A stretch of 64,000 nucleotides of DNA from Calidithermus chliarophilus DSM 9957 (GCF_000430045.1 NZ_KE387026.1:74844-138843), one strand, 5' to 3'; counted from the stretch's first letter, positions 7,148 through 61,620 are shown. Notes: generated from the letters alone by a model not told the origin. A program made the numbers and translations.

Positions 7148-7241
7148 GAGGTCTGCTCAACGCCGAACGCCGAACGCCGAACGCCAAGGCGTCTCGCGTT
7201 TAGCGTTTTGCGTCTGGCGTCTGGCGTACGACGCAGGGCCC
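7148..7241. repeat. Heptamer tandem tracts in inverted orientation (CGCCGAA x4 then GCGTYTG x6) between sbcD and sbcC
   Basis: Direct reading: acgccgaacgccgaacgccgaacgccaag followed by gcgtctcgcgtttagcgttttgcgtctggcgtctggcg; the same heptamer family recurs at 8470, 40945, 44775, 46340 and 55815. Confidence 0.7.
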
Positions 7242-8396
7242 TCATAGCCCCTCCCCCGCGTGGACTTCCTCGTAGACCTGCTGGAAAGCCCGCAGCAGGC
7301 TCTCTTCGGGCTCGGCGGCGTAGGTTTCGCGGGAGTACTCGGTGTAGGCCTCGAGCCAGTCCCACTCCTCCTGCACGGGCAGGGCTTTGCGGGGGCGCTC
7401 GAGCTCGGGGAGCTCGAAGACCACGTCGAGCAGGTGGGGGAAGCGGCGGAAGAGGTCCTCGCGCAGGCGGGGGTTGCCGCGGCCCTCGATGACGAGCTTG
7501 GCCCAGCCGGGGAAGGTGGCGAGCTCCTCGAGGCGGCGGTCGAGGTCTTCGACCTTGACCTTGAAGCTGCGCAGGGGCTTGCCCCAGCGCTCGTTGACCT
7601 GCGTGACCTTAGGCGGAACGCCGGGCTCGAGCTCGACGATCAGGGCCCCGCGCGGGGCGTTCTCCCCCTCGCCGAAGTCGAGCTGCACCAGCGAGCCCGG
7701 GTACCAGGCCACCGGGGCTTCCGCGACCTGCTGCTGGCGGTGGATGTGGCCCAGCGCCACGTAAGAGAGCTGCGAGGGGAAGGCCGACTTCTCGACGGCG
7801 TAGCTGTTGGTGCAGTGGAACTCGAACTCACCCCCGCCCAGGCGGCTGCCCTCGACGGTGAGGTGGGCGAGCATGAGGTTGACGCCGGAGTTGAGCTCGG
7901 TGGAGAGATTGGCGAAGACCCGCTTCATGCCCTCGGAGTAAGCACCCTTCCACAGCGTGCCGTCGCCCTCGAGCAGCATCTGGGCCTTGACCAGCCGCCG
8001 CTCGGAGAGGAAGGGCAGCATGGCCGCCCGTCCCCCCGCCATCTCGACCACGCCGCCCCGCCCGGCCAGCTTGACCTCGCCGCGCACGGTGGCCCCGGCG
8101 AGCGAGAGCAGGGGCGAGAGGGCCTCGAGGCGGTCCCTCGAGTCGTGGTTCCCGGCGATCACCAGCGCCGGGACCTTCATCTCCTGCAGGCGGTAGAAAA
8201 AGCTGAAGGCGGCCCCCTCGGCCTCGGTGGTCACCTGCGGCCGGTCGAAGAGGTCGCCCGAGACCAACACCAAGTCGATGCGCTCGGAACGGACGAGCCT
8301 GAGCAGCTCCTCGAGCGCCGCCGCGATCTCGGCCGTGCGCTCGGTGCCCTTGAGCAGTTTGCCCAGGTGCCAATCGGCGGTGTGCAGAATCCGCAT
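7242..8396 (-). CDS. sbcD: DNA repair exonuclease SbcD (Mre11-like phosphoesterase)
   Basis: MRILHTADWHLGK...LVSGDLFD metallophosphatase motifs. Confidence 0.9.
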   Translation of the reverse strand: MRILHTADWHLGKLLKGTERTAEIAAALEELLRLVRSERIDLVLVSGDLFDRPQVTTEAEGAAFSFFYRLQEMKVPALVIAGNHDSRDRLEALSPLLSLAGATVRGEVKLAGRGGVVEMAGGRAAMLPFLSERRLVKAQMLLEGDGTLWKGAYSEGMKRVFANLSTELNSGVNLMLAHLTVEGSRLGGGEFEFHCTNSYAVEKSAFPSQLSYVALGHIHRQQQVAEAPVAWYPGSLVQLDFGEGENAPRGALIVELEPGVPPKVTQVNERWGKPLRSFKVKVEDLDRRLEELATFPGWAKLVIEGRGNPRLREDLFRRFPHLLDVVFELPELERPRKALPVQEEWDWLEAYTEYSRETYAAEPEESLLRAFQQVYEEVHAGEGL

Positions 8397-8469
8397 TGCC
8401 GTATTAGGTTACTCCATACAGGCGTGGGCAGAAAGCTGGGGGCGATGCTTTTGGGGTGAACGCTGGGCG

Positions 8470-8672
8470 CGGGTTGTACGTCGTACGTCCTACGTCGTAC
8501 GCCAAACGCCAGACGCAAAACGCAAGACGCAAGACGCCAGACGCCCTTTGTTTACCCCCCTTAGCAAGGGGGGCAGGGGGGATAAACCCTCCCCGCGTGC
8601 GGGGAGGGAAGGGGTGGGGTTTACCACGAACTGACGGCTGATGGCTGACCGCTGACGGCTTACCGCTTCCCC
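8470..8672. repeat. Composite intergenic repeat, copy A (GTACGTC/ACGCMAG heptamers + TTAGCAAGGGGGG module with 10-bp perfect hairpin CCCTCCCCGC/GCGGGGAGGG + GCTGAC tract)
   Basis: Sequence seen directly; homologous composite copies at 46225-46420 (inverted) and 55775-55985. Confidence 0.75.
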
Positions 8673-9380
8673 TCACCAACACAGCGCTTCCGTATACGAC
8701 TCGAGCCCGAAGTGGTGGATCACCCGTTCGACCCGGCCCACCTTGCCGTCGAAGCCGAGGCCGTGGGCGAAGAGTTCGACGCCGGGGGTCAGGCAGGGTT
8801 GGAGGCCCTCGAGCCGGACTTTAGCCTGGTGGACGTAGTACTCGGCCAGCGGGACCTTCTCGGCGTAGACGGGCCAGGTCTCCTCGCCCACCCACACCAG
8901 GCCCTTGTTGTCCATGCGCCAGGTCTTGTTGAGGTTGACCATCAGCGCCTCGAGGGCCTGGTAGGCCAGCCCCTCCTGGCGGAGCCAGTTGGGCAGCACC
9001 ACGCTGCTCTCCACGTTGCCCACGCGCTCGCCCACCTCGGCCAGCAGGTCTTCGATGACCTCGGCGGCGCGCGCCCGGCCGTAGTGCTTGGCCTCGACGT
9101 TGCGCGAGAGCCCGCCGGTGCCCCCTACCAGCCGCAGCCGCCACAGGCCCTGGTCCTCGAGCACCGAGAGCACGCTCATGTAGAACTCGGGGCCGTACTC
9201 GAGGTCGAGCACCACCGGCTGGCCGGGCTCGGGCCTCGAGGCCGCGGGGCTGGCCTTCAGGATCATCTCGGCCACCGGGCGGCCGATGCGCGGCAGCACG
9301 ATGCGCCCGCTCAGGACCGGGCGGTAGTTGAGCAGCAGCGAGGAGGCGGGGAACTCTCGAGTGGGGCTGGGGAGTCGCAT
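8673..9380 (-). CDS. Hypothetical protein upstream of sbcDC (same strand)
   Basis: Start chosen at ATG 9380 (MRLPSPTREF...). No recognisable motifs. A perfect TATAAT -10 box lies at 9400-9405 on the coding (minus) strand. Confidence 0.45.
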   Translation of the reverse strand: MRLPSPTREFPASSLLLNYRPVLSGRIVLPRIGRPVAEMILKASPAASRPEPGQPVVLDLEYGPEFYMSVLSVLEDQGLWRLRLVGGTGGLSRNVEAKHYGRARAAEVIEDLLAEVGERVGNVESSVVLPNWLRQEGLAYQALEALMVNLNKTWRMDNKGLVWVGEETWPVYAEKVPLAEYYVHQAKVRLEGLQPCLTPGVELFAHGLGFDGKVGRVERVIHHFGLESYTEALCW

Positions 9381-9472
9381 AGGCCGTGAGGCAGCGCAAT
9401 TATACGCACCCGCAGCATAATCTACGCCGTGACTAAAGCATATCTGAAGAGCAGCCGGAATAAAACCGCCGC

Positions 9473-9502
9473 TTGACGGGAGCACGGGGGGCGGCGTACC
9501 CT
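9473..9502 (+). promoter_or_regulatory. Putative sigma-A promoter of the pyr operon (TTGACG -18- TACCCT)
   Basis: -35 at 9473-9478, -10 at 9497-9502, about 50 nt upstream of the leader peptide RBS. Confidence 0.45.
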
Positions 9503-9517
9503 GGACCAGACCTTTAA

Positions 9518-10165
<648 letters not shown>

Positions 10166-11100: not shown

Positions 11101-11102
11101 CG

Positions 11103-11165
11103 GCCGATAGCTCGTCGCCAGTAGCCGGAGAACCCTGTGCTATCGGCTATTAGCGATTCGCGCGC
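11103..11165. repeat. GATAGC-type hexamer/inverted-repeat intergenic element
   Basis: ccgatagctcg...gctatcggctattagcg; related tracts at 25530-25600, 55780-55810, 58956-59045 and 61585-61620. Confidence 0.5.
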
Positions 11166-11180
11166 GACGAAGGAGCGCTA

Positions 11181-16235: not shown

Positions 16236-16363
16236 ATACCCGATTCGGTTAGTTCGTCCCCGAACGGCGGCGGGCTGAAAGGGCCGAAGGGAGGGCTCTG
16301 GGATTCAAAAAGATAGCCTCCGGGGCTCTTCGGATCGGATGATGATCTTTTTGAATCCGGTAT
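16236..16363 (-). mobile_element. MITE copy 1 (ATACCGG TIR family), reverse orientation, flanked by TCA/TCA
   Basis: TIRs TACCCGATTC...GAATCCGGTA; direct TCA on both sides; the right end overlaps the hemerythrin stop codon. Confidence 0.75.
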
Positions 16364-16794
16364 CAGGCCGCGCCGACGGGGGTACGGCCTCGCAATTGCA
16401 CGTCGATGTTGCAGATGTGCCCCACCAGCCAGTTTTTCAGCGTCCCGTGCAGTTCGCGCAGCATCTCGACGCTGGCCCCTCCGCGCGCTTTGTGCTGCTG
16501 GGTGAAGTCGGCGTAGAGCGCCAGGAAGCGGTCGTGCGCCTCCTTGTTCTTGCGGGCGATGGGGCAGCCCCGCAGCGTCATGCACAGCTCCTCGTAGGCG
16601 AAGTGGGTGTTGACGTAGCTCTCCAAGAACACCAAGAGGTTGTCCACCTCTTCGCGGTCCGCGGGGCTGCCGGGCGGGGTGGACTCGAGCAGGCGCTCGA
16701 GGCGGTTGACGTAGCCGACGAGGTTGCGGTGCTGCTCGTCGATGCGGGGTTCGCCGGTTTCATAGCTCGTGTTCCACTCGATCGCCATAGTCAC
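16363..16794 (-). CDS. Bacteriohemerythrin (hemerythrin HHE cation-binding domain protein)
   Basis: IDEQHRNLV...HFAYEE...HIC motifs typical of hemerythrin; 143 aa. Confidence 0.8.
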   Translation of the reverse strand: MTMAIEWNTSYETGEPRIDEQHRNLVGYVNRLERLLESTPPGSPADREEVDNLLVFLESYVNTHFAYEELCMTLRGCPIARKNKEAHDRFLALYADFTQQHKARGGASVEMLRELHGTLKNWLVGHICNIDVQLRGRTPVGAA

Positions 16795-16847
16795 GCTCCA
16801 ACGAGGCGAGTGTGACGAAAATACCGGGGAGGAATGTCCCCGGTAAT

Positions 16848-16966
16848 ACCAGGTTTGGGTGGATAGCCTCCGATCGGAGGCTATCCACCCCGACCGAAGG
16901 GAGTGCCCTGGGCTTCACAAAGATTTACCTCTGACGGATTTGAAGAGTATCTTTGTGAAGCCGGTA
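16848..16966 (+). mobile_element. MITE copy 2 (diverged; TACCAGG...CCGGTA), flanked by TAA/TAA; adjacent 24-bp mini-palindrome TACCGGGGAGGAATGTCCCCGGTA at 16822-16845
   Basis: Internal ttcacaaagat...atctttgtgaa inverted core, homologous to the ttcaaaaagat...atctttttgaa core of the other copies. Confidence 0.6.
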
Positions 16967-16996
16967 TAACGCCGTCCTGGAGGGTTGTCCGGCCGC

Positions 16997-19461: not shown

Positions 19462-19472
19462 GGGTTTGTTTT

Positions 19473-19631
19473 ATACCGGATTCAAAAAGATAATCATCCG
19501 ATCCGAAGAGCCCGGAGGCTATCTTTTTGAATCCTAGAGCACACCCCTCCCTGACGGTCGGCGAAGAAAGCGTATCCCTTCGGTCGGGTTAGTCCGTCAC
19601 CGTTCGGTGACGAACTAACCGAATCTGGTAT
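19473..19631 (+). mobile_element. MITE copy 3, flanked by TTA/TTA
   Basis: TIRs ATACCGGATTC...GAATCTGGTAT; internal palindrome gattcaaaaagat...atctttttgaatc. Confidence 0.75.
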
Positions 19632-19641
19632 TACGCTACCC

Positions 19642-25524: not shown

Positions 25525-25600
25525 TCCTGGATTGCCGATGGCTTACAGCCGATAGCTTATAGCTAAAAAACCCCTCGCGCTATTGGCTAGCGGCTAGCGG
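25525..25600. repeat. GATAGC/GCTAGCGG hexamer-tract element
   Basis: gccgatggcttacagccgatagcttatagct...ggctagcggctagcgg. Confidence 0.5.
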
Positions 25601-25607
25601 CCACGAG

Positions 25608-26597
25608 CTACTCCCTGAACGAGACGTGCCAGCCGGTGAGCCGGCGCTCGAGCCAGGCCACCAGGCCGTACCAGGCGATGCCGATGACCGAGGCCACGAT
25701 GATGGCCGACCACACGATGTCGAAGCCGAAGCGCCCGGCCTCGATCTGGATGCGGAAGCCCAGCCCCTGCCCGTTGGCACCGAAGAACTCGCCCACGATG
25801 GAGCCGATCATGGCCAGGGTGGTGCCGAGCTTGAGGGCGTTGAAGATGAAGGGCAGGGCGTTGGGGACGCGCAGCCAGCGGTACTGCTGGGCCTCGCCCG
25901 CCGCGTAGGAGCGCATGAGGTCGAGGGAGAGCGGGCTGACCTCGGTGAGGCCGCGGAAGGTGTTGACCACCACCGGGAAGAACACCGTGATGGCGACGAT
26001 GGCGGCCTTGGAGGGCCACTCCAGCCCCATCATCTTCACCAGCACCGGGGCCAGCGCCACGATGGGGATGCTCGAGAAGGCGGTGGCGTAGGGCAAGAAG
26101 CCGCGCTCGAGGAACACGAAGCGGCTCACCAGCAGCGCGGTCGCCACGCCCAGGCCGCAGCCGACGAGGTAGCCGGTGAAGGCCTCGAGCACCACCGTCT
26201 GGTAGGCGTCCTGCAACAGCACGTCGCGCACGGCCCACAGCGTGGCGAAGACCCGCGTGGGCGTGGGGATCAGGCCCGCGGGCACCTGGTACGCCCGCAG
26301 CAGGGCCTCGACCGTCAGGAGCACCAGGGCCAGGGTGAGCCCGGCCGGGATGAAGCCGACGAGCGGGCCGGTGCGGACGGCGGCGAGGAAGTTGGCGACC
26401 CGGGCCACCCCGTAAGCCGCCGCCGCGAAGCCCGCCAGGATCAGCAGCTTCTGGCCCGTCCCCGCGAGGTCGCTGCGGTCCCACCAGCTCCAGATGAACA
26501 GCGCCAGCAGGGCGAAGCCCAGCCCCACCGCCGCGACGCCGAGCCAGGGCAGGGGGCGGGCCGCGGGCGACGGGCGCCCCACCTTCAGCGCTTCCAC
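25608..26597 (-). CDS. ABC transporter permease (NitT/TauT family)
   Basis: BPD_transp_1 topology; GTG start ~26597 chosen (the ORF-track N-terminal extension overlaps the upstream permease). Confidence 0.7.
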   Translation of the reverse strand: MEALKVGRPSPAARPLPWLGVAAVGLGFALLALFIWSWWDRSDLAGTGQKLLILAGFAAAAYGVARVANFLAAVRTGPLVGFIPAGLTLALVLLTVEALLRAYQVPAGLIPTPTRVFATLWAVRDVLLQDAYQTVVLEAFTGYLVGCGLGVATALLVSRFVFLERGFLPYATAFSSIPIVALAPVLVKMMGLEWPSKAAIVAITVFFPVVVNTFRGLTEVSPLSLDLMRSYAAGEAQQYRWLRVPNALPFIFNALKLGTTLAMIGSIVGEFFGANGQGLGFRIQIEAGRFGFDIVWSAIIVASVIGIAWYGLVAWLERRLTGWHVSFRE

Positions 26598-35609: not shown

Positions 35610-35683
35610 TGGAAAAGGTAAAAGGTCAAAAGTAAAGTCCAGGTCTTTAACTTTTCACCCTTTACCCTTTTGACCTTTTCACC
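35610..35683. repeat. Imperfect ~32-bp-arm inverted repeat (GGTGAAAAG-type) between preT and preA
   Basis: ggtgaaaagtggaaaaggtaaaaggtcaaaag ...loop... cttttcaccctttacccttttgaccttttcacc. Confidence 0.65.
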
Positions 35684-40728: not shown

Positions 40729-40729
<1 letters not shown>

Positions 40730-40883: not shown

Positions 40884-40912
40884 AGCGGCCCCGGTATTGA
40901 ACCGGGGCTTTG
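40884..40912 (+). terminator. Intrinsic terminator for lon (GCCCCGGT-attgaa-CCGGGGC + TTTGCCTTT)
   Basis: GC stem followed by a T-rich tract. Confidence 0.55.
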
Positions 40913-40921: not shown

Positions 40922-40985
40922 GTAGGGGCAGGCACGAGACCTGCCCCTACAGCGTCTTGCGTCTTGCGTTTTGCGTTTGGCTCGA
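40922..40985. repeat. Hairpin GGGGCAGG-cacgagac-CTGCCCC + TACA + GCGTCTT heptamer tract (composite repeat, partial copy)
   Basis: The same hairpin + heptamer module is at 44757-44795. Confidence 0.6.
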
Positions 40986-43160: not shown

Positions 43161-43290
43161 GGCGGTACGTCCGGCTGCTTTCGGCGGTACACCCTCCGCG
43201 AAGCGCGGGGGCGCCAGCCAGGCCTGCAGAGCCTGGGCCTTTGCCTCCAGGAACCCGACTTTCCCGGCGTCTTAGCAGACGCAAGAACAG

Positions 43291-43319
43291 ATGGTAGCAT
43301 TCGAATGCTACTTTAGCAA
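43291..43319 (-). promoter_or_regulatory. Putative promoter for the tRNA-like genes (TTGCTA -17- TACCAT) whose spacer is a perfect 18-bp palindrome GTAGCATTCGAATGCTAC (43294-43311)
   Basis: Read on the minus strand; the palindrome exactly fills the -35/-10 spacer. Confidence 0.45.
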
Positions 43320-43427
43320 GCCCCCCAGAACTGGGATAATCAGGGCCATGGGTCGCGTCATCGCTTTCGTGGTTATTACGGCACTGGTCCTGATCGCCTG
43401 GTTCGCGCTGCTGCACCGCTACGGGGG

Positions 43428-44681: not shown

Positions 44682-44756
44682 GGGTTCAACATACCGCCAG
44701 GAGGCCCCTAAGGCTAGGGGAAAAAGGGCAGGCGCTAGGGGGAAAAGGGCAGGCAC

Positions 44757-44795
44757 GGGGGCCTGCCCCTACAAGGTTTTGCGTCTGGTGTTCGA
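44757..44795. repeat. Hairpin GGGCAGGCAC-ggggg-CCTGCCCC + TACA + heptamer stub (composite repeat, partial copy)
   Basis: Matches the 40922-40985 module. Confidence 0.6.
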
Positions 44796-44796
44796 C

Positions 44797-46137
<1,341 letters not shown>

Positions 46138-46224
46138 GTAAACCTCAGGGGCTTGCCGGAGGGATTCCGGGGCCGCGAAAAAGGAGCGGCAGGGCCGCCA
46201 ACGTTCTCAAGTGTAGCAAAGCGA

Positions 46225-46420
46225 TGAGCTTTAAGCTGTCAGCCCTCAGCCGTCACCTATCAGCTCGTGGCCCGTGGTGAAACCCCTCCCGTGGGGAGGG
46301 TTTATCCCCCCTAACCCCCCTTGCTAAGGAGGGGAACATGGCGTTTGGCGTTTGGCGTTTGGCGTTTGGCGTCTTGCGTCTTGCGTCTTGCGTTTGGCTA
46401 TCAGCTATCGACCATCGACA
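46225..46420. repeat. Composite intergenic repeat, copy B (inverted relative to copy A): GTCAGC tract, GGGAGGG hairpin, CCCCTTGCTAAGG, GGCGTTT x4 + GCGTCTT x3 heptamers, CTATCAGC tract
   Basis: Direct sequence comparison with 8470-8672 and 55775-55985. Confidence 0.75.
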
Positions 46421-46554
46421 CCCCAAATGTGCTCGCTCGGGCATTCACCCGGAGACAAATCCGGTATGAAAAACGAATGCGAGCCAATTCATGCCTAGTG
46501 CCCTGCCGTCTTCCCGGCGTTGCCCTCGGCTTCTGCAGGGGTGCTGAGTAGGGT

Positions 46555-48370: not shown

Positions 48371-48384
48371 TCAGGAGGAAAGCG

Positions 48385-51812: not shown

Positions 51813-52753
51813 AGGCGCTGCACCTCTGGGCGCTGGCCCTCGTCCTGCTGCTGAGCGCCTGCCAGGTCCAGGACTTCGCCCTGCGGCCCATCGACGGCGA
51901 CCGCCCGGTGCGGGCCGTGGCCACCGCCAACTTCGTCACCGACCTCGTGCAGCAGATCGGCGGGGAGCGGGTGCAGGTCACGGGCCTGATGGGCCCTGGC
52001 GTGGACCCCCACCTCTACAAGGCCTCGGCCGGGGACGTGCGCAAGCTCACCCAGGCCGACGTGGTGTTCTACAGCGGGCTGTTCCTCGAGGGCAAGATGG
52101 TCGAGCTCTTCGAGAAGATGCCCAAGGCCATCGCCATCACCGACGCCATCCCCCACGAGCTGCTCATCGCGCCGGAAGGCGGCTTCGAGGGCACCTACAC
52201 CTACGACCCCCACGTCTGGTTCGACGTGAGCCTGTGGGCCCACACCGCCGAGGCCGTGCGGGACGGGCTCTCCAAGGTGGACCCGGCAGGCGCCGGCTAC
52301 TACGCCGAACGCACCCGGCAGTACCAGGCCCGGCTGCAAGAGCTCGACGCCTGGGTCAAGCAGGAGATCGGGCGCATCCCCCCCGCGCAGCGGGTGATGG
52401 TGACCGCGCACGACGCCTTCGGCTACTTCGGGCGGCGCTACGGGCTCGAGGTGCGCGGCCTGCAGGGCGTCTCGACCGTGGCCGAGACCGGCACCCGCGA
52501 CGTGCAGGAGCTCGCGGCCTTCCTGGCCGAGCGCGGCATCCGGGCCATCTTCGTCGAGTCGAGCGTGCCCCGGCGCTCGGTGGAGGCCGTGGTGGCGGCG
52601 GTGCGGGCCCGGGGCAAGGAGCTGCGCATCGGCGGCGAGCTCTTCTCCGACGCGGCCGGCGACCCCGGCACCCCCGAAGGCACCTACGTCGGCATGGTCG
52701 AACACAACGTCAGAACCATCGTTTCGGCTCTGCTCGGAGGCGAACACCCATGA
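51809..52753 (+). CDS. mntA: Metal ABC transporter substrate-binding lipoprotein (TroA/ZnuA/MntA family)
   Basis: LLLSAC lipobox; [23 protein letters not shown] motifs; ATGA overlap with mntR. Confidence 0.85.
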
Positions 52754-53526
52754 TCAAGTCCAGCATCAACGAACAAGCTTCGGCCCTTCCCCGGCGGGCG
52801 GCGCCCCTCGAGGTGCGCGACCTCACCGTGGCCTACCACGAGAAGCCCGTGCTGTGGGACGTGGATCTCTCCATCCCCGAAGGCCAGCTCTGCGCCATCG
52901 TCGGGCCCAACGGCGCGGGCAAGAGCACCCTGATCAAGGCCGTGCTGGGGCTCATCCCCAAGGCCTCGGGCACCGTGCAGTTCTTTGGGCAGCCGCTCGA
53001 GGCCGCCCGGCGCCGCATCGGCTACGTGCCCCAGCGCTCCTCCGTGGACTGGGACTTCCCCACCAACGCCCTGGACGTGGTGCTGATGGGGCTCTACGGG
53101 CGGCTGGGCTGGTTCCGCCGGCCCGGCAAGGCCGAGCGCGAGGCCGCTATGCACGCGCTCGAGCAGGTCGGGCTCACCGCCTTCGCCCACCGCCAGATCG
53201 CCCAGCTCTCGGGCGGCCAGCAGCAGCGGGTCTTCCTGGCCCGCGCCCTGGCCCAGGCCTCCGACCTCTACTTCATGGACGAGCCCTTCGCCGGGGTGGA
53301 CGCGGTCACCGAGGCCGCCATCCTGCAGGTGATGCGCGAGCTGAAGAAGCAGGGCAAGACCGTGGTGGTGGTGCACCATGACCTCGAGACGGTGCGCGAC
53401 TACTTCGACCACCTCACCCTGCTCAACGTGCAGGTCATCGCCAGCGGGCCGCTCGAGCAGACCTTCACGCCCGAGAACCTCAAGGCCACCTACGGCGAGC
53501 GCATGAGCGTGGGCGTGGGGAGGTGA
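52750..53526 (+). CDS. mntB: Metal ABC transporter ATP-binding protein
   Basis: [10 protein letters not shown] Walker [16 protein letters not shown] signature. Confidence 0.85.
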
Positions 53527-53530
53527 GGCC

Positions 53531-54688
53531 GTGGACCTCCTCGCCGGCATCTTCACCGACTACACCCTGCGCAACGTAGCGCTGGGCGCGGCACTGCTGG
53601 GCCTGGTGGGCGGGGTGCTGGGCAGCTTCGCCACGTTGCGCCGCCAGAGCCTGCTGGGCGACGTGCTGGCCCACGCCGCGCTCCCCGGCATCTGCTTGGC
53701 CTTCCTCCTCACCGGGACCAAGGCCCCGCTGATCCTGCTGCTGGGCGCGGGCCTGGCGGGCTGGCTGGCCTCACTGTTGATGCTCGCCATCCTGCGCAGC
53801 ACCCGCCTGCCCGAGGACAGCACCCTGGGCGTGATCCTCAGCGGCTTCTTCGGCTTCGGCATCGGCCTCCTGACCTTCATCCAGCACAGCGGCGACAGCG
53901 ACCAGGCCGGTCTCGACAAGTTCATCTTCGGGCAGGCCGCCACCGTCGTGGGCGAGGACGTGCTGACCATGGCCGTTCTGGGCGGCGTCGCGCTCTTGCT
54001 GGTGGGCCTGCTGTACAAGGAGTTCAAGCTGCTCACCTTCGACCCCGCCTTCGCCTCGAGCCTGGGCCTCCCCGTGCGCGGCCTGGGCACGCTGCTGACC
54101 TCGCTGACGGTGATCGCGGTGATGATCGGGCTGCAGACCGTGGGCGTGGTGCTGATGGCCGCCATGCTCATCGCCCCGGCCGCCGCCGCGCGGCAGTGGA
54201 CCAACCGCCTGAGCACCATGGTCTGGCTCTCCGCGGCCTTCGGCGTCCTGTCGGGCGTGCTGGGCGCGGTGATCTCGGCCACGCGCGAGAACCTGCCCAC
54301 CGGCCCGCTGGTCGTGCTCACCGCCAGCCTCATCACCCTCTTCTCGCTGCTGCTGGCCCCCGAGCGCGGGCTGGTGTGGGACTGGCGGCGCACCCGCAAC
54401 AACCGCCGCCGCATCCGCCTCGAGCGCCTGCTGCTCGACGCCCACGTGCTCTACAACCACGCCGAGCTCACCCCCGAGAGCCTGGCCCAGCGCCGCCGCG
54501 CCGCCCCGGCCAGGGCCAAGGAGGAGCTCGAGGAGCTCGCCGCCCGGGGCTGGGTGACCGGGCGCGGGGAGCGCTGGGAGCTCACCGAGCAGGGCCACGC
54601 CGAGGCCCACCGCCTCGAGCAGGCCATGCGGGTGCTGCCCAAGGCCCTGAACCCGCGCGCCGAAGGCGGCGCAGGAGGTGCCGCGTGA
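53531..54688 (+). CDS. mntC: Metal ABC transporter permease (ABC-3) with ~110-aa C-terminal soluble extension
   Basis: ABC-3 TM core, then NNRRRIRLERLLLDAHVLYNHAELTPESLAQ...ARGWVTGRGERWELTEQG resembling a winged-helix/DtxR-N-like module. Confidence 0.8.
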   Translation: MDLLAGIFTDYTLRNVALGAALLGLVGGVLGSFATLRRQSLLGDVLAHAALPGICLAFLLTGTKAPLILLLGAGLAGWLASLLMLAILRSTRLPEDSTLGVILSGFFGFGIGLLTFIQHSGDSDQAGLDKFIFGQAATVVGEDVLTMAVLGGVALLLVGLLYKEFKLLTFDPAFASSLGLPVRGLGTLLTSLTVIAVMIGLQTVGVVLMAAMLIAPAAAARQWTNRLSTMVWLSAAFGVLSGVLGAVISATRENLPTGPLVVLTASLITLFSLLLAPERGLVWDWRRTRNNRRRIRLERLLLDAHVLYNHAELTPESLAQRRRAAPARAKEELEELAARGWVTGRGERWELTEQGHAEAHRLEQAMRVLPKALNPRAEGGAGGAA

Positions 54689-55770
54689 GCTCCGACTTCG
54701 TCATCGTCCTCACCGCCATCTTCGTCTCCACCGCCTCGGCGCTGCTGGGCAGCTTCCTGGTGCTGCGCCGTATGGCCCTGATGGCCGACGCCATCTCGCA
54801 CGCGGTGCTCCCCGGCATCGTGCTGGCCTTCTGGGTCTCCGGGGGCGAGCGGGCCACGGCCCCGGCGCTGCTGGGCGCCGCCGCAGCCGGGCTGCTCACC
54901 GTGACGCTGGTGGAGTGGCTCACCCGTACCGGGCGCATCAAGAACGACGCGGCCATCGGGCTGGTCTTCCCCGCCCTCTTCAGCCTCGGGGTGCTGGCGG
55001 TGTCGCTGTACTTCCGCAACGTCCACCTCGACCTCGACGCGGTGCTCTACGGCGAGATCGCCTACGCCCCCTTCAACACCCTCGAGGCCTTCGGCCTCAA
55101 CCTGGGGCCGGAGTCGCTGTGGATCATGGGCGGCCTGACCCTCGTCAACCTGCTGTTCGTGCTGCTGTTCTACAAGGAGCTCAAGCTCTCGACCTTCGAC
55201 GCAGGGCTGGCGGCGGCCCTGGGCTTCCTGCCCGCCGTGCTGCACTACGCCCTGATGAGCCTGGTCTCGCTCACCGCCGTGGGCGCGTTCCAGTCGGTGG
55301 GGGCCATCCTGATCGTGGCCTTCCTGATCATCCCCCCCGCCACTGCCTACCTCCTCACCCAGCGCCTGCCGGTGATGATCGCCCTGGCGGTGCTGGTGGG
55401 GGCGGTCTCGAGCGTGCTGGGCTACGTGCTCGCCATCCTGCTCGACGCCTCCATCGCCGGGATGATGGCCACTGTGGCCGGGCTGCTCTTCGGGCTGGCC
55501 TGGCTGTTCTCGCCCGTGGGCGGGGTGCTCACCGCCCGCAACCGCCGCGAGCGCCAGCGCCGCGAGTTCGCCGCCCGCCTGCTGCTGGCCCACCTGGCCC
55601 ACCACGACCGGCCCGTCCCGGCGCGGGAGGTGCTCGAGGAGTTCGGCTGGAGCCCCGCCTTCCTGGCCCAGGCCCAGCAGTGGGCCCAGCGCGAAGGGCT
55701 CCTCGCGGGCGACCCCAACGGGCTGCGGCTGACGGCTCGAGGCGCAGCTTTGGCGGGGGAAAGGCCGTAG
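54685..55770 (+). CDS. mntD: Second metal ABC transporter permease (ABC-3), also with C-terminal soluble extension
   Basis: GTGA overlap with mntC; AGGAGG RBS; tail RNRRERQRREFAARLLLAHLAHHDRPVPAREVLEEFGWSPAFLAQAQQWAQREGLL. Confidence 0.8.
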   Translation: MSSDFVIVLTAIFVSTASALLGSFLVLRRMALMADAISHAVLPGIVLAFWVSGGERATAPALLGAAAAGLLTVTLVEWLTRTGRIKNDAAIGLVFPALFSLGVLAVSLYFRNVHLDLDAVLYGEIAYAPFNTLEAFGLNLGPESLWIMGGLTLVNLLFVLLFYKELKLSTFDAGLAAALGFLPAVLHYALMSLVSLTAVGAFQSVGAILIVAFLIIPPATAYLLTQRLPVMIALAVLVGAVSSVLGYVLAILLDASIAGMMATVAGLLFGLAWLFSPVGGVLTARNRRERQRREFAARLLLAHLAHHDRPVPAREVLEEFGWSPAFLAQAQQWAQREGLLAGDPNGLRLTARGAALAGERP

Positions 55771-55774
55771 GGGG

Positions 55775-55985
55775 GGTCGATAGTCGATAGCTGATAGCCG
55801 ATAGCCGGGCGCGGGTCGTACGGCGTACGTCCTACGCAAAACGCAAGATGCAAGACGCAAGACGCCCCTTCTCCACCCCCCTTAGCAAGGGGGGCCGGGG
55901 GGATACCCCCTCCCCGCGCGCGGGGAGGGGTTTCTTCTACACCACAGGCCCCTACCTTTCGCTGACGGCTTACAGCTTATCGCTT
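55775..55985. repeat. Composite intergenic repeat, copy C (GATAGC tract, ACGCAAG heptamers, TTAGCAAGGGGGG + CCCTCCCCGCGCGCGGGGAGGG hairpin, GCTGAC tract)
   Basis: Same order and orientation as copy A at 8470-8672. Confidence 0.75.
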
Positions 55986-55995
55986 CCCGCTCTCC

Positions 55996-56688
55996 CTACC
56001 GTGCCTGCACGCTGATGCGGTTCCCTGCTGCGTCTACCGCGATGATCGTCGCGGAGCGAACGGGGACTTCGACGTAGAAAGGGACCTCCTTACCCTTGGG
56101 CAGGGAGAGGGTGTTGTAGAGGGTCTTGCCGCCCTGCTGGTACTGCACGACCACCTTGTCCACGCCGGTGTCGTCCAGGGCGCGGCCGGTGATGCGGATG
56201 CCCTTGTTGACCGGGGTGCGCTCGACGATGGGCTCCTGGTTTTCCGAGCCGGGCGGGGGGGCGACGGTGCGGGTGGTGTACTCGACGATAGGCTCGGTGC
56301 GCTCGAGGCGGATCTGCGGCTGCCGGGCGTCGAGCACCAGGGGCAGCCTCATCTCCCGGCTCCGGCCGCTGAGGTCGGTGGCGGTGATGGTCAGCTCGAC
56401 CTGGCCCGACTGCGGGGTGTTGACGATGAAGCTGAACTGGTAGAGCTTGTCGCCGCGCTCCTTCTCCGGCAGTAGCTCGGTCTCCTTCTGAATGTTGCTC
56501 TTGACCCGCACGCTGCCGAGGCCGGTGTCGTCCATGGCGTAGCCCACCACCCGGACCTTGCGGTCTTTGAACACCCCGCCCTGCGGCTGGACCACCGACA
56601 GCAGGGGTGAGAGGGTGTCGTTGCTTCGCACGCAGGAGGTCAACGCGAACAAAAAGAGAATGGAGAGGAGCCAACGCATCCTCTCCAT
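55996..56688 (-). CDS. Lipoprotein with two tandem ~90-aa repeat domains (each carrying a DDTG motif)
   Basis: LFALTSC lipobox; VVGYAMDDTGLGSVRV and ITGRALDDTGVDKVVV repeat anchors. Confidence 0.55.
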   Translation of the reverse strand: MERMRWLLSILFLFALTSCVRSNDTLSPLLSVVQPQGGVFKDRKVRVVGYAMDDTGLGSVRVKSNIQKETELLPEKERGDKLYQFSFIVNTPQSGQVELTITATDLSGRSREMRLPLVLDARQPQIRLERTEPIVEYTTRTVAPPPGSENQEPIVERTPVNKGIRITGRALDDTGVDKVVVQYQQGGKTLYNTLSLPKGKEVPFYVEVPVRSATIIAVDAAGNRISVQAR

Positions 56689-56703
56689 CCTAACAACCCC
56701 GGG

Positions 56704-57186
56704 TTAGAAGTACAGGCGCGGGCCCAGGTTGATGCCCAGGCCGAACGCCGAGTTACCGCCCGCGAAGGTGAAGCCCGGCACCACCTCGGTGAGCAGGCTG
56801 AACTTCCCGGCCACGGGGAACTCGAGGCCCAGGATGCCGCGAACCTGGAACGCCGTGGCGCTAGTGCCGCTGGTAGCAACCACCACCAGGCCACCGCCCA
56901 GACCAGCGTAGAGGTTAGGGCCCTGCAGCGTGAAAGGCAGCAGCACGTCAGTGGTAAGGCCAAAGAGGGTAGCGGCGGTCCCGCCCGCATTCCCCACCGC
57001 AACAGTAGCACCGCCCCGCAGGGTCAGCGGCCCTAGGAGGTTCTCCATGCCGGCTTGAAGCCCCAGGCTCATGCCGAAGGCGGGCGTGACGGAGATCTGA
57101 CCGGAAACCGCCTCGCCGAATACCCGCCCCTGAGCAAAGGCACCGGTGAGCACAAAAACGACCATCAGAACGAGGAGTTTCTTCAT
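56704..57186 (-). CDS. Small glycine-rich outer-membrane beta-barrel-like protein (paralog 1)
   Basis: Signal peptide MKKLLVLMVVFVLTGAFAQG; alternating hydrophobic Gly-rich strands; C-terminal aromatic LYF; GGAGG RBS. Confidence 0.55.
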   Translation of the reverse strand: MKKLLVLMVVFVLTGAFAQGRVFGEAVSGQISVTPAFGMSLGLQAGMENLLGPLTLRGGATVAVGNAGGTAATLFGLTTDVLLPFTLQGPNLYAGLGGGLVVVATSGTSATAFQVRGILGLEFPVAGKFSLLTEVVPGFTFAGGNSAFGLGINLGPRLYF

Positions 57187-57303
57187 ATTCGTTCCTCCGG
57201 TCCAGAGTATATACAGAAAACGCGGAAAATCGTCAAGTCGGGAGGTCAAAATTAGTGATGGCAAGGGCCAAACTGCGCCCTTGCCATCTCGGCTAAGTGG
57301 GTT

Positions 57304-57759
57304 TTAGCGGAAGATCACGCCGACCCGGGTGCCGTAGCCGAAGCCCACGCCGCCCCCGCCCGCGAGGACGATGCTGGCACCAAGCTGCCCTTCCCCGTAG
57401 AAGCTGAAGGTGGTGCCGGCCAGGCGGTACTCAACCCCCAGCAGCGCGTGGGGGAAGATGTAGAACCCGCCGGTGGAAAGGAAGGCCCAGAAACCTGCTC
57501 CAACGCCTGCTCCATAGTACCAGCTCAGCTCGTTGCCCCCACCGACCGGGATCGGCATCTCGGCGAGGATGAAGTCGGCCGAGGCACCCAGGCCGGCGAA
57601 GGAGATGCCACCGCCGAAGCGCAGGCTGTTGCTCTGGTACTGGATGCCCAGCCACTCGGGGATCCCCGAGTAGACGCCGAAGCCGTCCGACTGGGCAAAG
57701 CCGAGGGAGCTAAGAACGAAGAGCATCGCCGATACTGCAAGAATTTTGATCTTTTTCAC
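57304..57759 (-). CDS. Small glycine-rich outer-membrane beta-barrel-like protein (paralog 2)
   Basis: GTG start with AGGAGG RBS; signal peptide VKKIKILAVSAMLFVLSSLGFAQ; C-terminal GVIFR. Confidence 0.55.
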   Translation of the reverse strand: MKKIKILAVSAMLFVLSSLGFAQSDGFGVYSGIPEWLGIQYQSNSLRFGGGISFAGLGASADFILAEMPIPVGGGNELSWYYGAGVGAGFWAFLSTGGFYIFPHALLGVEYRLAGTTFSFYGEGQLGASIVLAGGGGVGFGYGTRVGVIFR

Positions 57760-57812
57760 GCTGTCACCTCCTGATCCCGAGTCTAACACGTGAGCGTTAC
57801 GCAAGCGTTAGT

Positions 57813-58955
57813 TCAGGTGGTGTAGAGCGCGTTGATCTTGACGTAACCTTCGGTCAGGTCGCACCCCCAGGCCATCGCCTGGGCGTCGCCCGCGCCGAGA
57901 TCGGCCTCTACGAGCACTTCCTCGGCTTTCATGCTCTCGGAGGCCTGGCGGCGGTCGAAGGGCAGGGCGGCCCCGGCGTAGAGCGGCATCCCCTGGAGCT
58001 TGATGTGGACGTGGGAGGGGTCGAACTTCGCCCCCGAGCGGCCCAGCGCCATCATGACGCGGCCCCAGTTGGGGTCGTTGCCGTAGACCGCGCTCTTCCA
58101 CAGCGGGCTGGCGGCGACGGTGCGGGCGGCCTCGCGGGCCTCGTCCTCGCTGCGGGCGCCCGTCACCCGCACGGTGATGAGCTTGGTGGCGCCCTCCCCG
58201 TCGCGGGCGATCTGGCGGGCCAGGGAGACGCAGACCGACTCCACGGCCTGCCAGAAGGCTAACGGGTCGGTCTCCCCGGCCGCGCCGTTGGCGAGGATCA
58301 CGGCCATGTCGTTAGTGGAGGTGTCGTTGTCCACGGTGACCTGGTTGAAGCTGTGGTCCACCACGCGCTTCCAGCCGCGGCGCAGTTCCTCCTGCGGCAC
58401 GGCGGCGTCGGTGAAGACGAAGCCGAACATGGTCGCCATGTTGGGGTGGATCATGCCGCTGCCCTTGGCGACCCCCACCACCCGGGCGCCGCCGGGCAGC
58501 GTGGCCTCGGCGGTCTTCATCACCAGGTCGGTGGTGAGGATGGCCTGGGCGAAGGGGGTGAGCAGGGGGCCCAGTTGCACGTTAGGCAGCGCCGCCTCGA
58601 CCTTCTCCACCGGCAGCGGCACCCCGATGACCCCGGTGGAGGCGGTCAGCACGGCCTCCGGCGCGATACCCAGCCGCGCGGCGGCCAGTTCGGCCATGCG
58701 GCGGTCGGCCCGTACCCCGGCCTCGCCGGTGGCGCAGTTGGCGTTTCCGGCGTTGACCACGACGGCCTGTAAGGACCCCCCGGCCTCGCGCAATTCGCGC
58801 CCGCGCAGCACGCAGGGGGCGGCGGCCTGGTTCAACGTGCCCACGAAGGCCCACGAGCACGGAACCCCCGAGGCCACCAAGCTCAGGTCGGGCTTGCCGG
58901 AGGGCTTGATGTTGGCCGGGGTGGCCCCGGCACGGAAGCCGATGGGTAATTTCAT
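57813..58955 (-). CDS. argJ: Bifunctional glutamate N-acetyltransferase / amino-acid acetyltransferase
   Basis: [11 protein letters not shown]...ATGEAG...[17 protein letters not shown] autoproteolytic Thr region. Confidence 0.85.
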
Positions 58956-59045
58956 AGTCGATAGCTTATAGCCGATAGCCGGTAGCCAAAAGCCAGAGCG
59001 AAGAAATCCTTACTACCGACCATTGACCATCGACTAGCGACGCTC
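58956..59045. repeat. GATAGC hexamer-tract element between argJ and argC
   Basis: catagtcgatagcttatagccgatagccggtagcc...ccgaccattgaccatcgactagcgacg. Confidence 0.55.
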
Positions 59046-59052
59046 CGAACGC

Positions 59053-60021
59053 TCAATCCCCGTGGTACTCGTAGGCGTGCGCCCCCTCGAGCCCCAGCAT
59101 CAGGTCGAGGTTCTGCACCGCCGCGCCCGAGGCGCCCTTGCCCAGGTTGTCGAAGCGGGCGATGAGCAGGGCCTGCTCGCGCTCGGGGTTGGCGTAGACG
59201 AACAGCTCCATGCGGTTGGTGCCGTTGAGGGTCTGGGGGTCGAGCACGGGGTTGTGGGCGCCGTAGGTCTCCAGCGGCATCACCGTCACGAAGCGCTGGG
59301 CACGGTAGTGCTCGGCCAGGGCCGCGTGGAGCTCGGCGGCCGTGACCGGCCTGGGCAGGGCCCACAAGTGCACCGGGATCACGATCAGCATGCCCTGGGC
59401 GAAGCGCCCGACCGCCGGGGTGAAGATGGGCGGTCGCGCGAGGCGGGAGTAGCGGGTCATCTCGGGCACGTGCTTGTGGGTGAGCTCGAGGCCGTAGGCG
59501 CGGTAGTCGCCGGCCAGGCGGTGCTCCCCCCGGCCCTCCATGGCCTCGATGAGCTGCCGCCCGCCCCCGCTGTAGCCCGAGGTGCCCTGCACCGAGGCTG
59601 GGAAGGCCTCAGGCAGGAGCCCGGCGTCTACGAGCGGGCGCAGCAGGCCGATGGCCCCGGTGGGGTAGCAGCCGGGGTTGGAAACGAAGCGGGCCCGGCG
59701 GATCTGCTCGGCCTGGCCGGGGCCGAGCTCGGGGAAGCCGTAGACCCAGCCCTCGGCCACGCGGTGCGCCGAACTGGCGTCGAGGATACGGGTGCCGGGG
59801 TTCTCCACCAGGCCCACCGCCGCCTTGGCCACGTCGTCGTGCAGGCAGAGGATGGCCACGTCGGCCGCGTTGAGCAGGCGCTTGCGCTCGGACTCGTCCT
59901 TGCGCTTGGCGGGGTCGATGGAGAGGAGCTCGAGGTCGGTGCGCCCCAGCAGCCGCCCCCGGATCTGCAGGCCGGTGGTCCCGGCCTCGCCGTCGATGAA
60001 GACCTTGGGCTTTCTCATCAA
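59053..60021 (-). CDS. argC: N-acetyl-gamma-glutamyl-phosphate reductase (short, uncommon form)
   Basis: [20 protein letters not shown] Rossmann start; ~320 aa like ArgC type 2. Confidence 0.8.
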
Positions 60022-60024
60022 TGT

Positions 60025-60570
60025 TTACCAGGACAGCGCGAGGGGCGTGTCAGGAAAAGCCAGGGGAGCTACCGGCTCGGCGGGGTCGTGATCCAAACGG
60101 GACAGGTAACGGCTGCCCTTGGGCTGGCGGTAGACCTCGACCCGGTAGGCCTCAGGGTTTACGATCCAGACCTCGGGGATGCCTGCCTTCGCGTACACGG
60201 CCAGCTTTTTGCGGTCGTCCTCGAGGGTGGTTACGGCGACCTCGAGCACGAGGTACACGTCCTGAGCCTGGGGGTGTTCATGGCGATAATCGGCCACTCG
60301 GATCAGGGCCAGGTCGGGCTGAGGCATGGAGTGCTGGCCCAAACGGAGGGGGTTCTGGGTGCTAACCAGGGCCCTGCCCCGGAAATTCTCGTAGAGCGCG
60401 TCCTGAAACTTGCGTACCAGCGTGGCGTGAAGCGGTCCTATGGCCGGCATCTCGTAGACGACTCCCTCGATGAGTTCATAGCGTTTGTCCGGCGGCAAGT
60501 TCAGGCGGTAGAAGTCTTCCACCGTCAATTTGTAGCGACGGGATGGAGTCTGAGGCTCACGTACCGCCAT
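60025..60570 (-). CDS. Uma2-family endonuclease (DUF820, restriction-endonuclease-like fold)
   Basis: YELIEGVVYEMPAIGPLHATLV...DLALIRVAD...YLVLEVAVTT...YAKAGIPEVWIVNPE matches the Uma2 pattern. Confidence 0.75.
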   Translation of the reverse strand: MAVREPQTPSRRYKLTVEDFYRLNLPPDKRYELIEGVVYEMPAIGPLHATLVRKFQDALYENFRGRALVSTQNPLRLGQHSMPQPDLALIRVADYRHEHPQAQDVYLVLEVAVTTLEDDRKKLAVYAKAGIPEVWIVNPEAYRVEVYRQPKGSRYLSRLDHDPAEPVAPLAFPDTPLALSW

Positions 60571-60587
60571 GGGCTCAGTCTACCCCC

Positions 60588-61529
60588 TCAGCCTAGGAGG
60601 TGGTACAGCAGCGCCTTCTGGGCGTGCAGGCGGTTCTCGGCCTGGTCGAAGACCCGGCTCTTGGGGTGCAGGGTGGCCTCCTCCACGACCTCCTCGCCGT
60701 AGTGGGCGGGCAGGCAGTGCAGGAAGATGCCGTCCGGGGCGATGAGCTCGAGCATGGCCGGGGTCACCTGGAAGCCGGCGAAGTCCTTGATCTTGCGGCG
60801 CTGGCTGGCCTCCTGCTCCTGGCCCATGCTCACCCACACGTCGGTGTAGAGCACCTGCGCGCCCTCGGCGGCCTCGAGGGGGTCGTTGGTGAGGGTGACG
60901 TCGGCGCCGCGCTGCAGGGCGTCGAGGAGGATGACGGCGTTGGGCTCGTAGCCGCGCGGGGTGGCGATGGTGAGCTTGGCCCCCGAGAGCACCGCGCACT
61001 GGATGTGGGCGTTGGCCATGTTGTTGCCGTCGCCGATGTAGGCCACGCGCAGGCCCCGGGTGTCGGGGAAGGACTCCTCGATGGTCTGGTAGTCGGCCAT
61101 GAGCTGCACGGGGTGGAGCAGGTCGGAGAGGCCGTTGATGACGGGCTTGCGCGAATAGCGGGCGAGCTCCTCGAGCGTCGAGTGCAGGTAGACCCGCGCC
61201 ATGATGCCCTCCACCCAGCGCTCGAGGTTGAGCGCGATGTCGCGCACGGGCTCGCGCGTGCCCAGCCCGATCTCGGCGTTGGTGAGGTTGACGGCGTGCC
61301 CGCCGAGGTGGTTCATGGCTACCTCGAAGGTGGTGCGGGTGCGTAAGGAGGGCTTCTCGAAGATCATCGCCAGGGTCTGGCCCTCGAGGGGGCGCTGGCC
61401 CTTGAACTCGCCACGCTTCATGGCGTGGGCGGTGTCGAGCACCGCGCGGTATTCCTGGGGCGAGAGGTCGAGGTTGGAGAGGAAGTCGCGGCCTTTCAAG
61501 CTCTGCACGGGTTTGAGGGTTTCAACCAC
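60588..61529 (-). CDS. argF: Ornithine carbamoyltransferase
   Basis: STRTRTTFEVAM, HPVQLMADY, HCLPAHYGEE motifs; GTG start ~61529 chosen. Confidence 0.85.
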   Translation of the reverse strand: MVETLKPVQSLKGRDFLSNLDLSPQEYRAVLDTAHAMKRGEFKGQRPLEGQTLAMIFEKPSLRTRTTFEVAMNHLGGHAVNLTNAEIGLGTREPVRDIALNLERWVEGIMARVYLHSTLEELARYSRKPVINGLSDLLHPVQLMADYQTIEESFPDTRGLRVAYIGDGNNMANAHIQCAVLSGAKLTIATPRGYEPNAVILLDALQRGADVTLTNDPLEAAEGAQVLYTDVWVSMGQEQEASQRRKIKDFAGFQVTPAMLELIAPDGIFLHCLPAHYGEEVVEEATLHPKSRVFDQAENRLHAQKALLYHLLG

Positions 61530-61584
61530 AGGGTGCCTCCGGGGTGAACGCACACTTATGCGTCCAGAGAGCACGATTATACAA

Positions 61585-61620
61585 GCGATGGCCGATAGCC
61601 GATAGCTCGACAGCCGGACG
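61585..61620. repeat. GATAGC hexamer tract
   Basis: gatggccgatagccgatagctcgacagccgg. Confidence 0.5.

Follow-up and report, generated by a model that had tools for sequence, protein, structure and literature searches.

The DNA analysed here, referred to below as the window, is a stretch of 64,000 nucleotides from Calidithermus chliarophilus DSM 9957 (GCF_000430045.1, NZ_KE387026.1:74844-138843), with positions counted from its first letter. It contains a family of dispersed intergenic repeats in which arrays of tandem heptanucleotides flank a short GC-rich palindrome. The surrounding genes are those of an ordinary chromosome, with SbcCD, MurJ, Lon, ABC transporters and functions in pyrimidine and arginine metabolism recognised among the ~50 open reading frames (ORFs) by Pfam and NCBIfam scans, which detected no transposase, integrase, RAYT or phage genes. 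For SbcD, the window encodes a sequence with 100% identity to that of Calidithermus chliarophilus, and the C. roseus locus L008 is syntenic with positions 51849-59366 at 86-88% identity.

Three composite copies of ~200 bp each, at 8470-8672, 55775-55985 and, inverted, 46225-46420, lie where the first-pass annotation had placed them and share a single order of modules (Table 1): a phased heptamer array, a core of the form C6-TTAGCAA-G6-NN(N)-G6ATA, usually a second GC hairpin, and a second heptamer array. The multi-module family is thereby confirmed as real. Within the core, a triloop hairpin whose stem is 8 bp long (CCCCCCTT-AGC-AAGGGGGG) is followed by two or three variable bases, another G6 run and ATA. 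The variable bases between the G6 runs are CA, CC or TTA in the three composites and not a single C/A choice as first described. We found three exact matches to the 15-mer CCTTAGCAAGGGGGG in the window and none in 100 dinucleotide-preserving shuffles; a looser test allowing up to 2 mismatches was non-discriminating. The second hairpin (CCCTCCCCGC..GCGGGGAGGG) follows the core in most copies and is missing from four composites. Its stem, originally given as a perfect 9-10 bp, has that length in copies 1 and 3 and reaches only ~7 bp in copy 2. For the composite as a whole, possible terminal inverted repeats (GGGGTCGAT ... ATCGCTTCCCC) were noticed only on visual inspection and are not established.

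The arrays are specifically heptameric. When 18 of 21 matches were required at a given lag, lag 7 yielded 8 tracts and lag 8 a single one, and lags 4-6 and 9-12 yielded none. Relaxing the threshold brought up lags 6, 9 and 12 as well, in line with codon periodicity, with lag 7 still in excess. Tandem Repeats Finder (TRF) reported the same period-7 arrays, and the GATAGC and GCTGAC tracts previously taken for hexamers are actually heptamers (CGATAGC and CTGACGG). Written in register from the core, the left arm is a single continuous 7-nt phase of up to 13 units in the order [YGATAGC]n CGGGCGC GGGTCGT [ACGTCNT]n [ACGCAAG]n ACGCCYT, from which a short linker leads to the core. A common phase is likewise kept in the right arm, with [CCACGAG]n preceding [CTGACGG]n. 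Period-7 arrays occur in ~11 of the roughly two dozen spacers of at least 80 bp, and five others carry an unrelated miniature inverted-repeat transposable element (MITE), so the claim that the repeats mark nearly every long spacer was overstated. A different hairpin, core B (GTAGGGGCAGG...CCTGCCCCTAC, also read as GGGGCAGG..CCTGCCCC), stands beside ACGCAAG-type arrays at 40922-40985 and 44757-44795; it is present twice in the window compared with 0.04 copies expected by chance.

We give virtually no credence to the idea that these repeats are local, degenerate pieces of an insertion sequence (IS), a prophage att region or a CRISPR. The ORFs of the window include no mobile-element genes and the family is therefore not IS or prophage debris. 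Nor is it restricted to the 64-kb segment, since it recurs on other C. roseus contigs, on M. taiwanensis contigs, in further species and in metagenomes. The exclusion of CRISPR in the first-pass annotation holds, as the units are 7 nt long and in tandem, with no repeat-spacer regularity and no 28-37 nt repeats in the TRF and repeat output.

To follow the family across taxa, we scanned one genome per species with the pattern CCTTAGCAAGGGGGGN{2,3}GGGGGGATA. Among the matches listed, the Thermaceae were represented by at least six C. roseus contigs and by Meiothermus taiwanensis, and other taxa by metagenome-assembled genomes (MAGs) of Spirulina (at least three contigs), Anaerolineales, Patescibacteria and Aminicenantes (at least two contigs). 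In metagenomes, 15 stretches with the exact core were found among 241 million records, comprising Thermaceae-like stretches with the full composite, stretches of the types already seen in Spirulina, Anaerolineales and Patescibacteria, and cores standing alone in contigs with GC contents of 35%, 54% and 64%. The order of modules and the junction units are constant in all Thermaceae copies, which lie at non-orthologous loci of three species in two genera as well as in metagenomes, and the ~200-bp composite is therefore one family and not a set of independent coincidences.

The core alone is shared far beyond the Thermaceae, with identity over 22-31 nt in Spirulina, Anaerolineales, Aminicenantes and Patescibacteria, on contigs with GC contents of 35-64%. 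In Spirulina, where the copies use ACCAATN and CAGTCAC units, the core is situated within an ACCAATN heptamer array that continues on both sides in direct orientation. The Aminicenantes and Spirulina copies have an intact outer arm and form a two-tier palindrome, ATCCCCCC-N7-10-CCCCCC-TTAGCAA-GGGGGG-N3-GGGGGGAT, and a variant core in which the loop is TTTGCAA, accompanied by a second hairpin, is present on a Leptolyngbya plasmid. With a generalised pattern we obtained 31 matches in viral contigs, ~7 of which were poly-C/poly-G artefacts; sister cores were present in ~15 contigs, with loops TTCCCAA, TTGGTAA, TTAGTAA, TTATCAA and similar, the stem being conserved and the triloop free. The exact TTAGCAA core was absent from the viral contigs searched. 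Neither the cross-phylum core, with its apparent insertion described below, nor the likeness of the arrays to cyanobacterial STRR heptamers had been picked up in the first-pass annotation.

Short tandem repeats were also observed around other cores and in other hosts. Sister cores of six phage contigs (L055, L065, L073, L084, L072 and L056) are directly followed by short tandem repeats such as (TTTC)5, (GTTC)n, two copies of CTCCGG, or three copies of AATCCTGTT on both sides. Core-bearing loci or their orthologs in Patescibacteria (L013/L023) and in a contig of 35% GC (L034) contain the period-7 tracts CAATTTT, AAATCCC, CTTACTT, GTTTCAT and TTAATTC, some of them inside called genes. A plasmid search identified arrays of >300 bp built of AAACGCC, AAACGCA and GAACGCT at 20 places in Caballeronia sp. 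M1242 (NZ_CP071130.1, L041), a betaproteobacterium; this is the ACGC-centred unit family also present in the Calidithermus arrays, with 91.5% identity over 47 nt.

One core has been inserted into a protein-coding gene. In the Patescibacteria contig L013 it lies in frame within an ORF of 348 amino acids that has >1,000 homologs, the closest of which, at 72-81% identity, lack exactly the core segment (...LMLDGANIPPTPLAKGGIGALKD... versus ...LMLE--RGG--D...). At the DNA level the difference is a net insertion of 45 nt, with a 6-bp direct repeat, CGCGCC, on the two sides of the core. In the homolog L024 this codon position is occupied by a variant core, whose loop is TTTAATAA. The surface loop concerned in this nucleotidyltransferase-like protein holds other inserts in further homologs (alignment columns 201-240; P0125, P0137, P0145 and P0167), one of which reads ...LDSRLRGNDKK... 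and looks like a different widespread palindromic repeat in translated form. Mini-elements may insert into this loop preferentially, or the loop may be permissive to their insertion.

Comparisons of orthologous spacers revealed rapid turnover of the arrays next to a constant core. Copy 3 and its C. roseus ortholog are almost identical in the core, hairpin 2 and the right flank, whereas the left array has been reshuffled unit by unit. Copy-number variation of the heptamers among relatives, envisaged in the first-pass annotation, was seen for instance in the sbcD-sbcC array, one arm of which has 6 units in the window and 9 in L021; in C. timidus this array is short, in L020 units of the CCACGAG type take its place, and a Meiothermus ortholog with a 20-bp spacer lacks it. 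At four orthologous loci of relatives, composite 1, located upstream of sbcD, is either missing or represented only by array remnants. Downstream of the MiaB-like gene, between flanks common to both sequences, the short array remnant and core B of the window correspond to a full left array and a TTAGCAA core in L025 (88% identity). Upstream of that gene, L025 has four heptamers in opposite orientation in place of composite 2, and its sequence jumps from position 46220 of the window to 49132, so that two ABC permease genes and most of a binding-protein gene are missing (a 2.9-kb difference, 46221-49131). Composite 2 sits exactly at this breakpoint. A strain-level difference between L032 and the left array of copy 3 was treated as unreliable since it lies at most 110 nt from a contig end inside the repeat.

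The reading that we favour, at slightly better than even chances, is that of a selfish, non-coding and non-autonomous palindromic mini-element nested in fast-evolving heptamer microsatellite arrays, similar in kind to the repetitive extragenic palindromic (REP) sequences and bacterial interspersed mosaic elements (BIMEs), to the short tandemly repeated repetitive (STRR) sequences and to the small dispersed repeats (SDRs). Its first layer would be a GC-rich palindrome of ~30-45 nt with the full form ATCCCCCC-N7-10-CCCCCCTT-NNN-AAGGGGGG-N2-3-GGGGGGAT, represented in the window by copies with the triloop AGC and a degenerate outer left arm. This element would be mobile in trans and would have spread across phyla, perhaps by means of a hairpin-recognising enzyme acting on single-stranded DNA. 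The second layer would consist of phased, degenerate heptamer arrays, comparable to STRR sequences, that grow, shrink and are rearranged through whole-unit slippage or unequal exchange. In the Thermaceae both layers and the second GC hairpin would have been joined into the fixed-order composite of ~200 bp and copied to many spacers as a unit, or else homogenised between spacers by recombination through the arrays. Copies would be tolerated mainly just after stop codons and co-transcribed as 3' untranslated regions (UTRs), where attenuated transcription or more stable 3' ends may be a by-product of the hairpins.

Several observations weigh against this reading. No clean empty site with a target duplication for the 200-bp composite was found at the orthologous spacers compared; at the sites of composites 1 and 2 array remnants were present in every relative, one of them in inverted form. 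No gene for the mobilisation was identified, the ORFs of the window being devoid of transposases and RAYTs, and the single 6-bp direct repeat CGCGCC in the Patescibacteria gene may be a chance match. With only 15 exact matches in metagenomes, the TTAGCAA subfamily is not highly proliferative outside the Thermaceae. Finally, the orientation bias described below and the constancy of the core among orthologs may reflect selection for a host function.

This bias was examined for 13 Thermaceae composites, in 10 of which the gene 5' of the core is co-oriented and the array starts within a few bases of the stop codon. At this sample size the bias is marginal (one-sided binomial ~0.05), and it could equally well result from strand-specific insertion. 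Both core-B sites are also located directly after the stop codon of a co-oriented gene. For copy 3, the stop codon at 55768-55770 was supported by codon-position statistics and by the distribution of C. roseus substitutions (72, 25 and 17 mismatches by codon position), and hairpin 2 with its T-rich tail TTTCTTCT passes a terminator scan. Such positions, along with the conservation of the core and hairpin 2 between orthologs while the arrays drift, would be accounted for if the composites were selected 3'-end modules, in which the array serves as a spacer or as a leader bound by a protein and the hairpins work as intrinsic terminators (bidirectional in the case of the palindromic hairpin 2) or as blocks to 3' exonucleases that stabilise the upstream mRNA. 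We consider this possible but unlikely, because copy 2 and L038 are located between divergent gene starts, copy 1 is antisense to the genes on either side of it, one array pair lies inside the sbcD-sbcC operon and a separate canonical terminator at 40887-40909 adjoins one element. Moreover, the core in the Patescibacteria ORF and in phage contigs would be left unexplained. The bidirectional terminators proposed in the first-pass annotation have modest support from the co-orientation and from copy 3; the divergent starts at copy 2, the operon-internal array, the composites without hairpin 2 and the T-runs after the hairpins, which are mostly 3 nt, weigh against them.

Local hairpins in the elements are stable, which speaks for small structured RNA genes. 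Despite this, there were no compensatory changes in either hairpin, pairing did not exceed that of shuffle controls, and an Rfam search of the window returned only tRNAs above the gathering score, with spurious miRNA models as the best matches at E<10. Folds of the whole composites disagreed between the three copies (z-scores of -2.9, -1.4 and +0.4), on which ground a single conserved long-range structure was rejected. No promoter-like sites were found at the elements. Taken together, the lack of compensatory changes and of Rfam matches and the discordant folds make a structured-RNA gene very improbable.

A conserved stem with a free triloop suggests recognition of a DNA or RNA hairpin by a protein, and it counts in favour of another explanation, namely that the repeats are DNA-level binding or structure sites (for a nucleoid protein, gyrase or a recombinase, or as G-quadruplexes or cruciforms) with a role in chromosome organisation or in promoting recombination. 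G-quadruplex motifs are matched by the G6-NN-G6 core and by GGGGAGGGAAGGGGTGGGG, the inverted arrays fold strongly, and composite 2 is at the edge of the 2.9-kb difference between the window and L025. Against this, neither a binding protein nor a regular genomic spacing was identified and the array units are entirely different between phyla; we regard a role of this kind as improbable.

A further and doubtful proposal takes the palindrome C6TT-NNN-AAG6-NN-G6AT to be the site at which an undescribed DNA transaction acts in cis; this transaction would both carry the palindrome from phylum to phylum and seed or target short tandem arrays. Hairpin-directed nicking with slipped resynthesis would be a candidate for such a transaction. 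The arrays adjacent to cores have a period of 7 in the Thermaceae and Spirulina, and of 4, 6 and 9 in phage contigs.

A gene between inverted arrays may be of relevance here. The ORF at 33747-34139 (minus strand), located between a dihydropyrimidinase-like gene and the DPD gene, encodes a four-helix-bundle protein (TIGR02436/PF05635; Avd-like, '23S rRNA IVS') and is bracketed by inverted (GGTGAAAA)n arrays at 33665-34197. Homologs with ~70% identity in Chthonomonas, Hydrogenedentes, an actinobacterium, Desulfomonile and a Thermaceae MAG likewise all lie between short-period arrays, mostly with GGACTGA/GGGATGA heptamers upstream and the inverse downstream (L042, L044-L046, L049 and L051). Inverted heptamer or octamer arrays were present on both sides of the Avd-like gene in all six loci examined, from at least five phyla, and from this arrangement the gene looks like a cassette carried between array arms. 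Its link to the composite family is architectural only, and the two may be connected. If the transaction exists and the cassettes are connected to it, they would provide a mechanistic handle on the existence of heptamer microsatellites in prokaryotes. An 'empty' inverted pair of arrays of this same AAGGTGA type, folding with a ~40-bp stem (z = -5.8) was also observed at 35595-35686, between two genes of the pyrimidine-degradation operon.

Table 1. Modules of the composite repeats, partial copies and MITEs
Feature	Position	Strand	Description
Composite 1, left array	8468..8551	+	Phased, ~11 units: GTACGTC-type then ACGCAAG-type
Composite 1, core	8555..8584	+	C6 8555-8560, TTAGCAA 8561-8567, G6 8568-8573, CA, G6 8576-8581, ATA
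Composite 1, hairpin 2	8587..8608	+	CCCTCCCCGC-GT-GCGGGGAGGG, then G-rich AAGGGGTGGGG
Composite 1, right array	8628..8673	+	CTGACGG-type; abuts stop codon of minus-strand gene 8673-9569
Composite 2, left array	46331..46420	-	GATAGC-type then ACGCAAG/ACGCCAA units; 8.6 copies by TRF
Composite 2, core	46303..46334	-	CCCCTCC-TTAGCAA-G6-TTA-G6-ATA
Composite 2, hairpin 2	46283..46300	-	CCCTCCC-CAC-GGGAGGG; shorter stem
Composite 2, right array	46224..46266	-	GCTGAYR-type
Composite 3, left array	55771..55870	+	13 units, one phase; directly after stop codon of co-oriented gene
Composite 3, core	55876..55905	+	C6-TTAGCAA-G6-CC-G6-ATA
Composite 3, hairpin 2	55907..55930	+	10 pairs, then TTTCTTCT; terminator-like score
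Composite 3, right array	55961..55995	+	GCTGACG/GCTTACA units; MITE inserted here in C. roseus ortholog
Partial copy	7148-7241 (arrays 7151..7239)	.	ACGCC-type inverted array pair in sbcD-sbcC spacer, no core; long hairpin, z = -4.35
Partial copy	11101-11170 (arrays 11103..11165)	.	Short inverted GATAGC-type arrays, no core; weak, fold z = -0.5
Partial copy	25525..25612	.	GATAGC/GCTAGC-type arrays, partly inverted, no core; fold not outstanding
Partial copy, core B	40922..40985	-	Hairpin GTAGGGGCAGG..CCTGCCCCTAC (z = -6.4) and ACGCAAG-type array; directly downstream of Band_7 gene (-)
Partial copy, core B	44745..44796	-	Hairpin and array remnant, downstream of MiaB-like gene
Partial copy	58953-59047	.	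GATAGC-type array with inverted partner, no core; long hairpin, z = -3.1
Partial copy	61585..61620	+	GATAGC-type array, ~4 units, no core
MITE, window	16236-16366, 16842-16976, 19471-19634, 40729-40864, 49704-~49925		
MITE, relatives	L008 3410-3540; L017 2325-2452; L018 5772-5891		

Composite 2 lies between the starts of the divergent genes for the MiaB-like protein (44797-46137, minus strand) and an ABC permease (46555-47499, plus strand). Arrays of the unit families seen in the composites were confirmed at seven of the eight sites earlier listed as partial copies. The eighth, 43261-43330, is unconvincing as a member of the family, having only one inverted unit pair and a promoter-like TTAGCA-16-GATAAT. 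A tandem 21-nt duplication (two copies of GCTAGGGGAAAAAGGGCAGGC) adjoins core B at 44713-44754, and its GCCTGCCCT part is common to the ortholog L025. The MITEs, of the classical type, are ~130 bp in size (one is ~220 bp) and have TACCGGATTC...GAATCYGGTA as their terminal inverted repeats; in C. roseus a copy was inserted into the right heptamer array of the composite 3 ortholog with a TA/TTA duplication, and the corresponding site of the window is empty. Short-read assemblies of the same species (Logan/JGI contigs L001-L004 and L032) are broken by the elements: the ACGCAAG array is where L001-L003 stop, at 40953, and the end of L032 falls within the composite 3 core. Besides breaking short-read assemblies, the elements create spurious or altered ORFs.

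A literature search with the core string returned only unrelated primers and no paper containing the core, and no literature was found on heptamer arrays in Meiothermus or Calidithermus. Among known repeats, the arrays are comparable to the STRR heptanucleotides of cyanobacteria, which Mazel and colleagues are said to have described in 1990. As in STRR sequences, several families of 7-nt units are repeated head to tail, as seen in the lag test, the TRF output and the phase of the left arm; they are dispersed over non-coding loci (11 spacers), are often found in inverted pairs and vary between close relatives, with unit number and content differing at orthologous loci. In contrast to STRR sequences, the host is Calidithermus chliarophilus, a member of the Deinococcota (Thermaceae), and the units differ from those published, being GC-rich (ACGCAAG, GTACGTC, CGATAGC and CTGACGG) and arranged in a fixed multi-type series coupled to a palindromic core. 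Heptameric simple sequence repeats are in excess in Nostoc and Xanthomonas, and heptamers are over-represented in several bacteria and essentially uncharacterised (PMC4692102). The over-representation of heptamer microsatellites in several bacterial lineages has no accepted explanation.

Three other groups of elements also bear comparison. SDR1-8 of the Nostocaceae, on which Elhai and colleagues reportedly published in 2008, are likewise hairpin repeats of tens of nucleotides that are apparently mobile, insert precisely and nest in other repeats, a comparison made here by description only. The core described here is common to at least five phyla, whereas SDRs are reported to be confined to the Nostocaceae (PMC5861425), as is SDR5, a precisely inserting repeat module (PMC5861425, PMC4390886). 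The Rickettsia palindromic elements provide a precedent for in-frame insertion of a palindrome (PMC10969869). They too are selfish palindromes able to enter coding genes in frame and be translated, with the difference that they are ~150 bp long and restricted to Rickettsia, while the insert found here is ~36-45 nt, with one coding insertion and variants at the same loop. The small non-coding repeats (SNR/SRE) of Deinococcus radiodurans, reportedly described by Makarova and colleagues in 2001, come from the same phylum and, compared by description only, are also mosaic intergenic repeats of 60-215 bp. To our knowledge, neither heptamer arrays nor the TTAGCAA core have been described for SNRs.

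REP sequences and BIMEs of Enterobacteria and Pseudomonas are mobilised by RAYT (Y1 HUH) transposases and can affect mRNA stability and termination. The first-pass annotation had dismissed them, yet the mosaic organisation is conceptually close: both are GC-rich imperfect extragenic palindromes combined in mosaics with other short motifs, located at gene 3' ends and inside operons. As for SDR and REP elements, presence and absence at a conserved site were observed, in the Patescibacteria ORF, at the 3' site of the MiaB-like gene and at copy 1. Unlike REP sequences, the TTAGCAA core has no GTAG head, with which only core B begins, no RAYT was seen among the ORFs of the window, tandem heptamer arrays are not part of BIMEs, and REP sequences are lineage-specific while the present core is cross-phylum. 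The full core ends ATCCCCCC...GGGGGGAT were considered as termini of the MITE type, and no related IS was found.

Very small mobile palindromes are not well understood, since none of them has been linked to an enzyme. Here, one exact core links the Thermaceae, cyanobacteria and bacteria of candidate phyla, has sister cores in phage contigs and recurs beside tandem arrays, and a search for the enzyme by phylogenetic profiling and an analysis of array dynamics by strain comparison are therefore directly testable approaches. In its way of working the family is like REP/BIME mosaics, and it resembles cyanobacterial STRR arrays in which small dispersed repeats are embedded; in the sequence features that could be tested it departs from each of these families.

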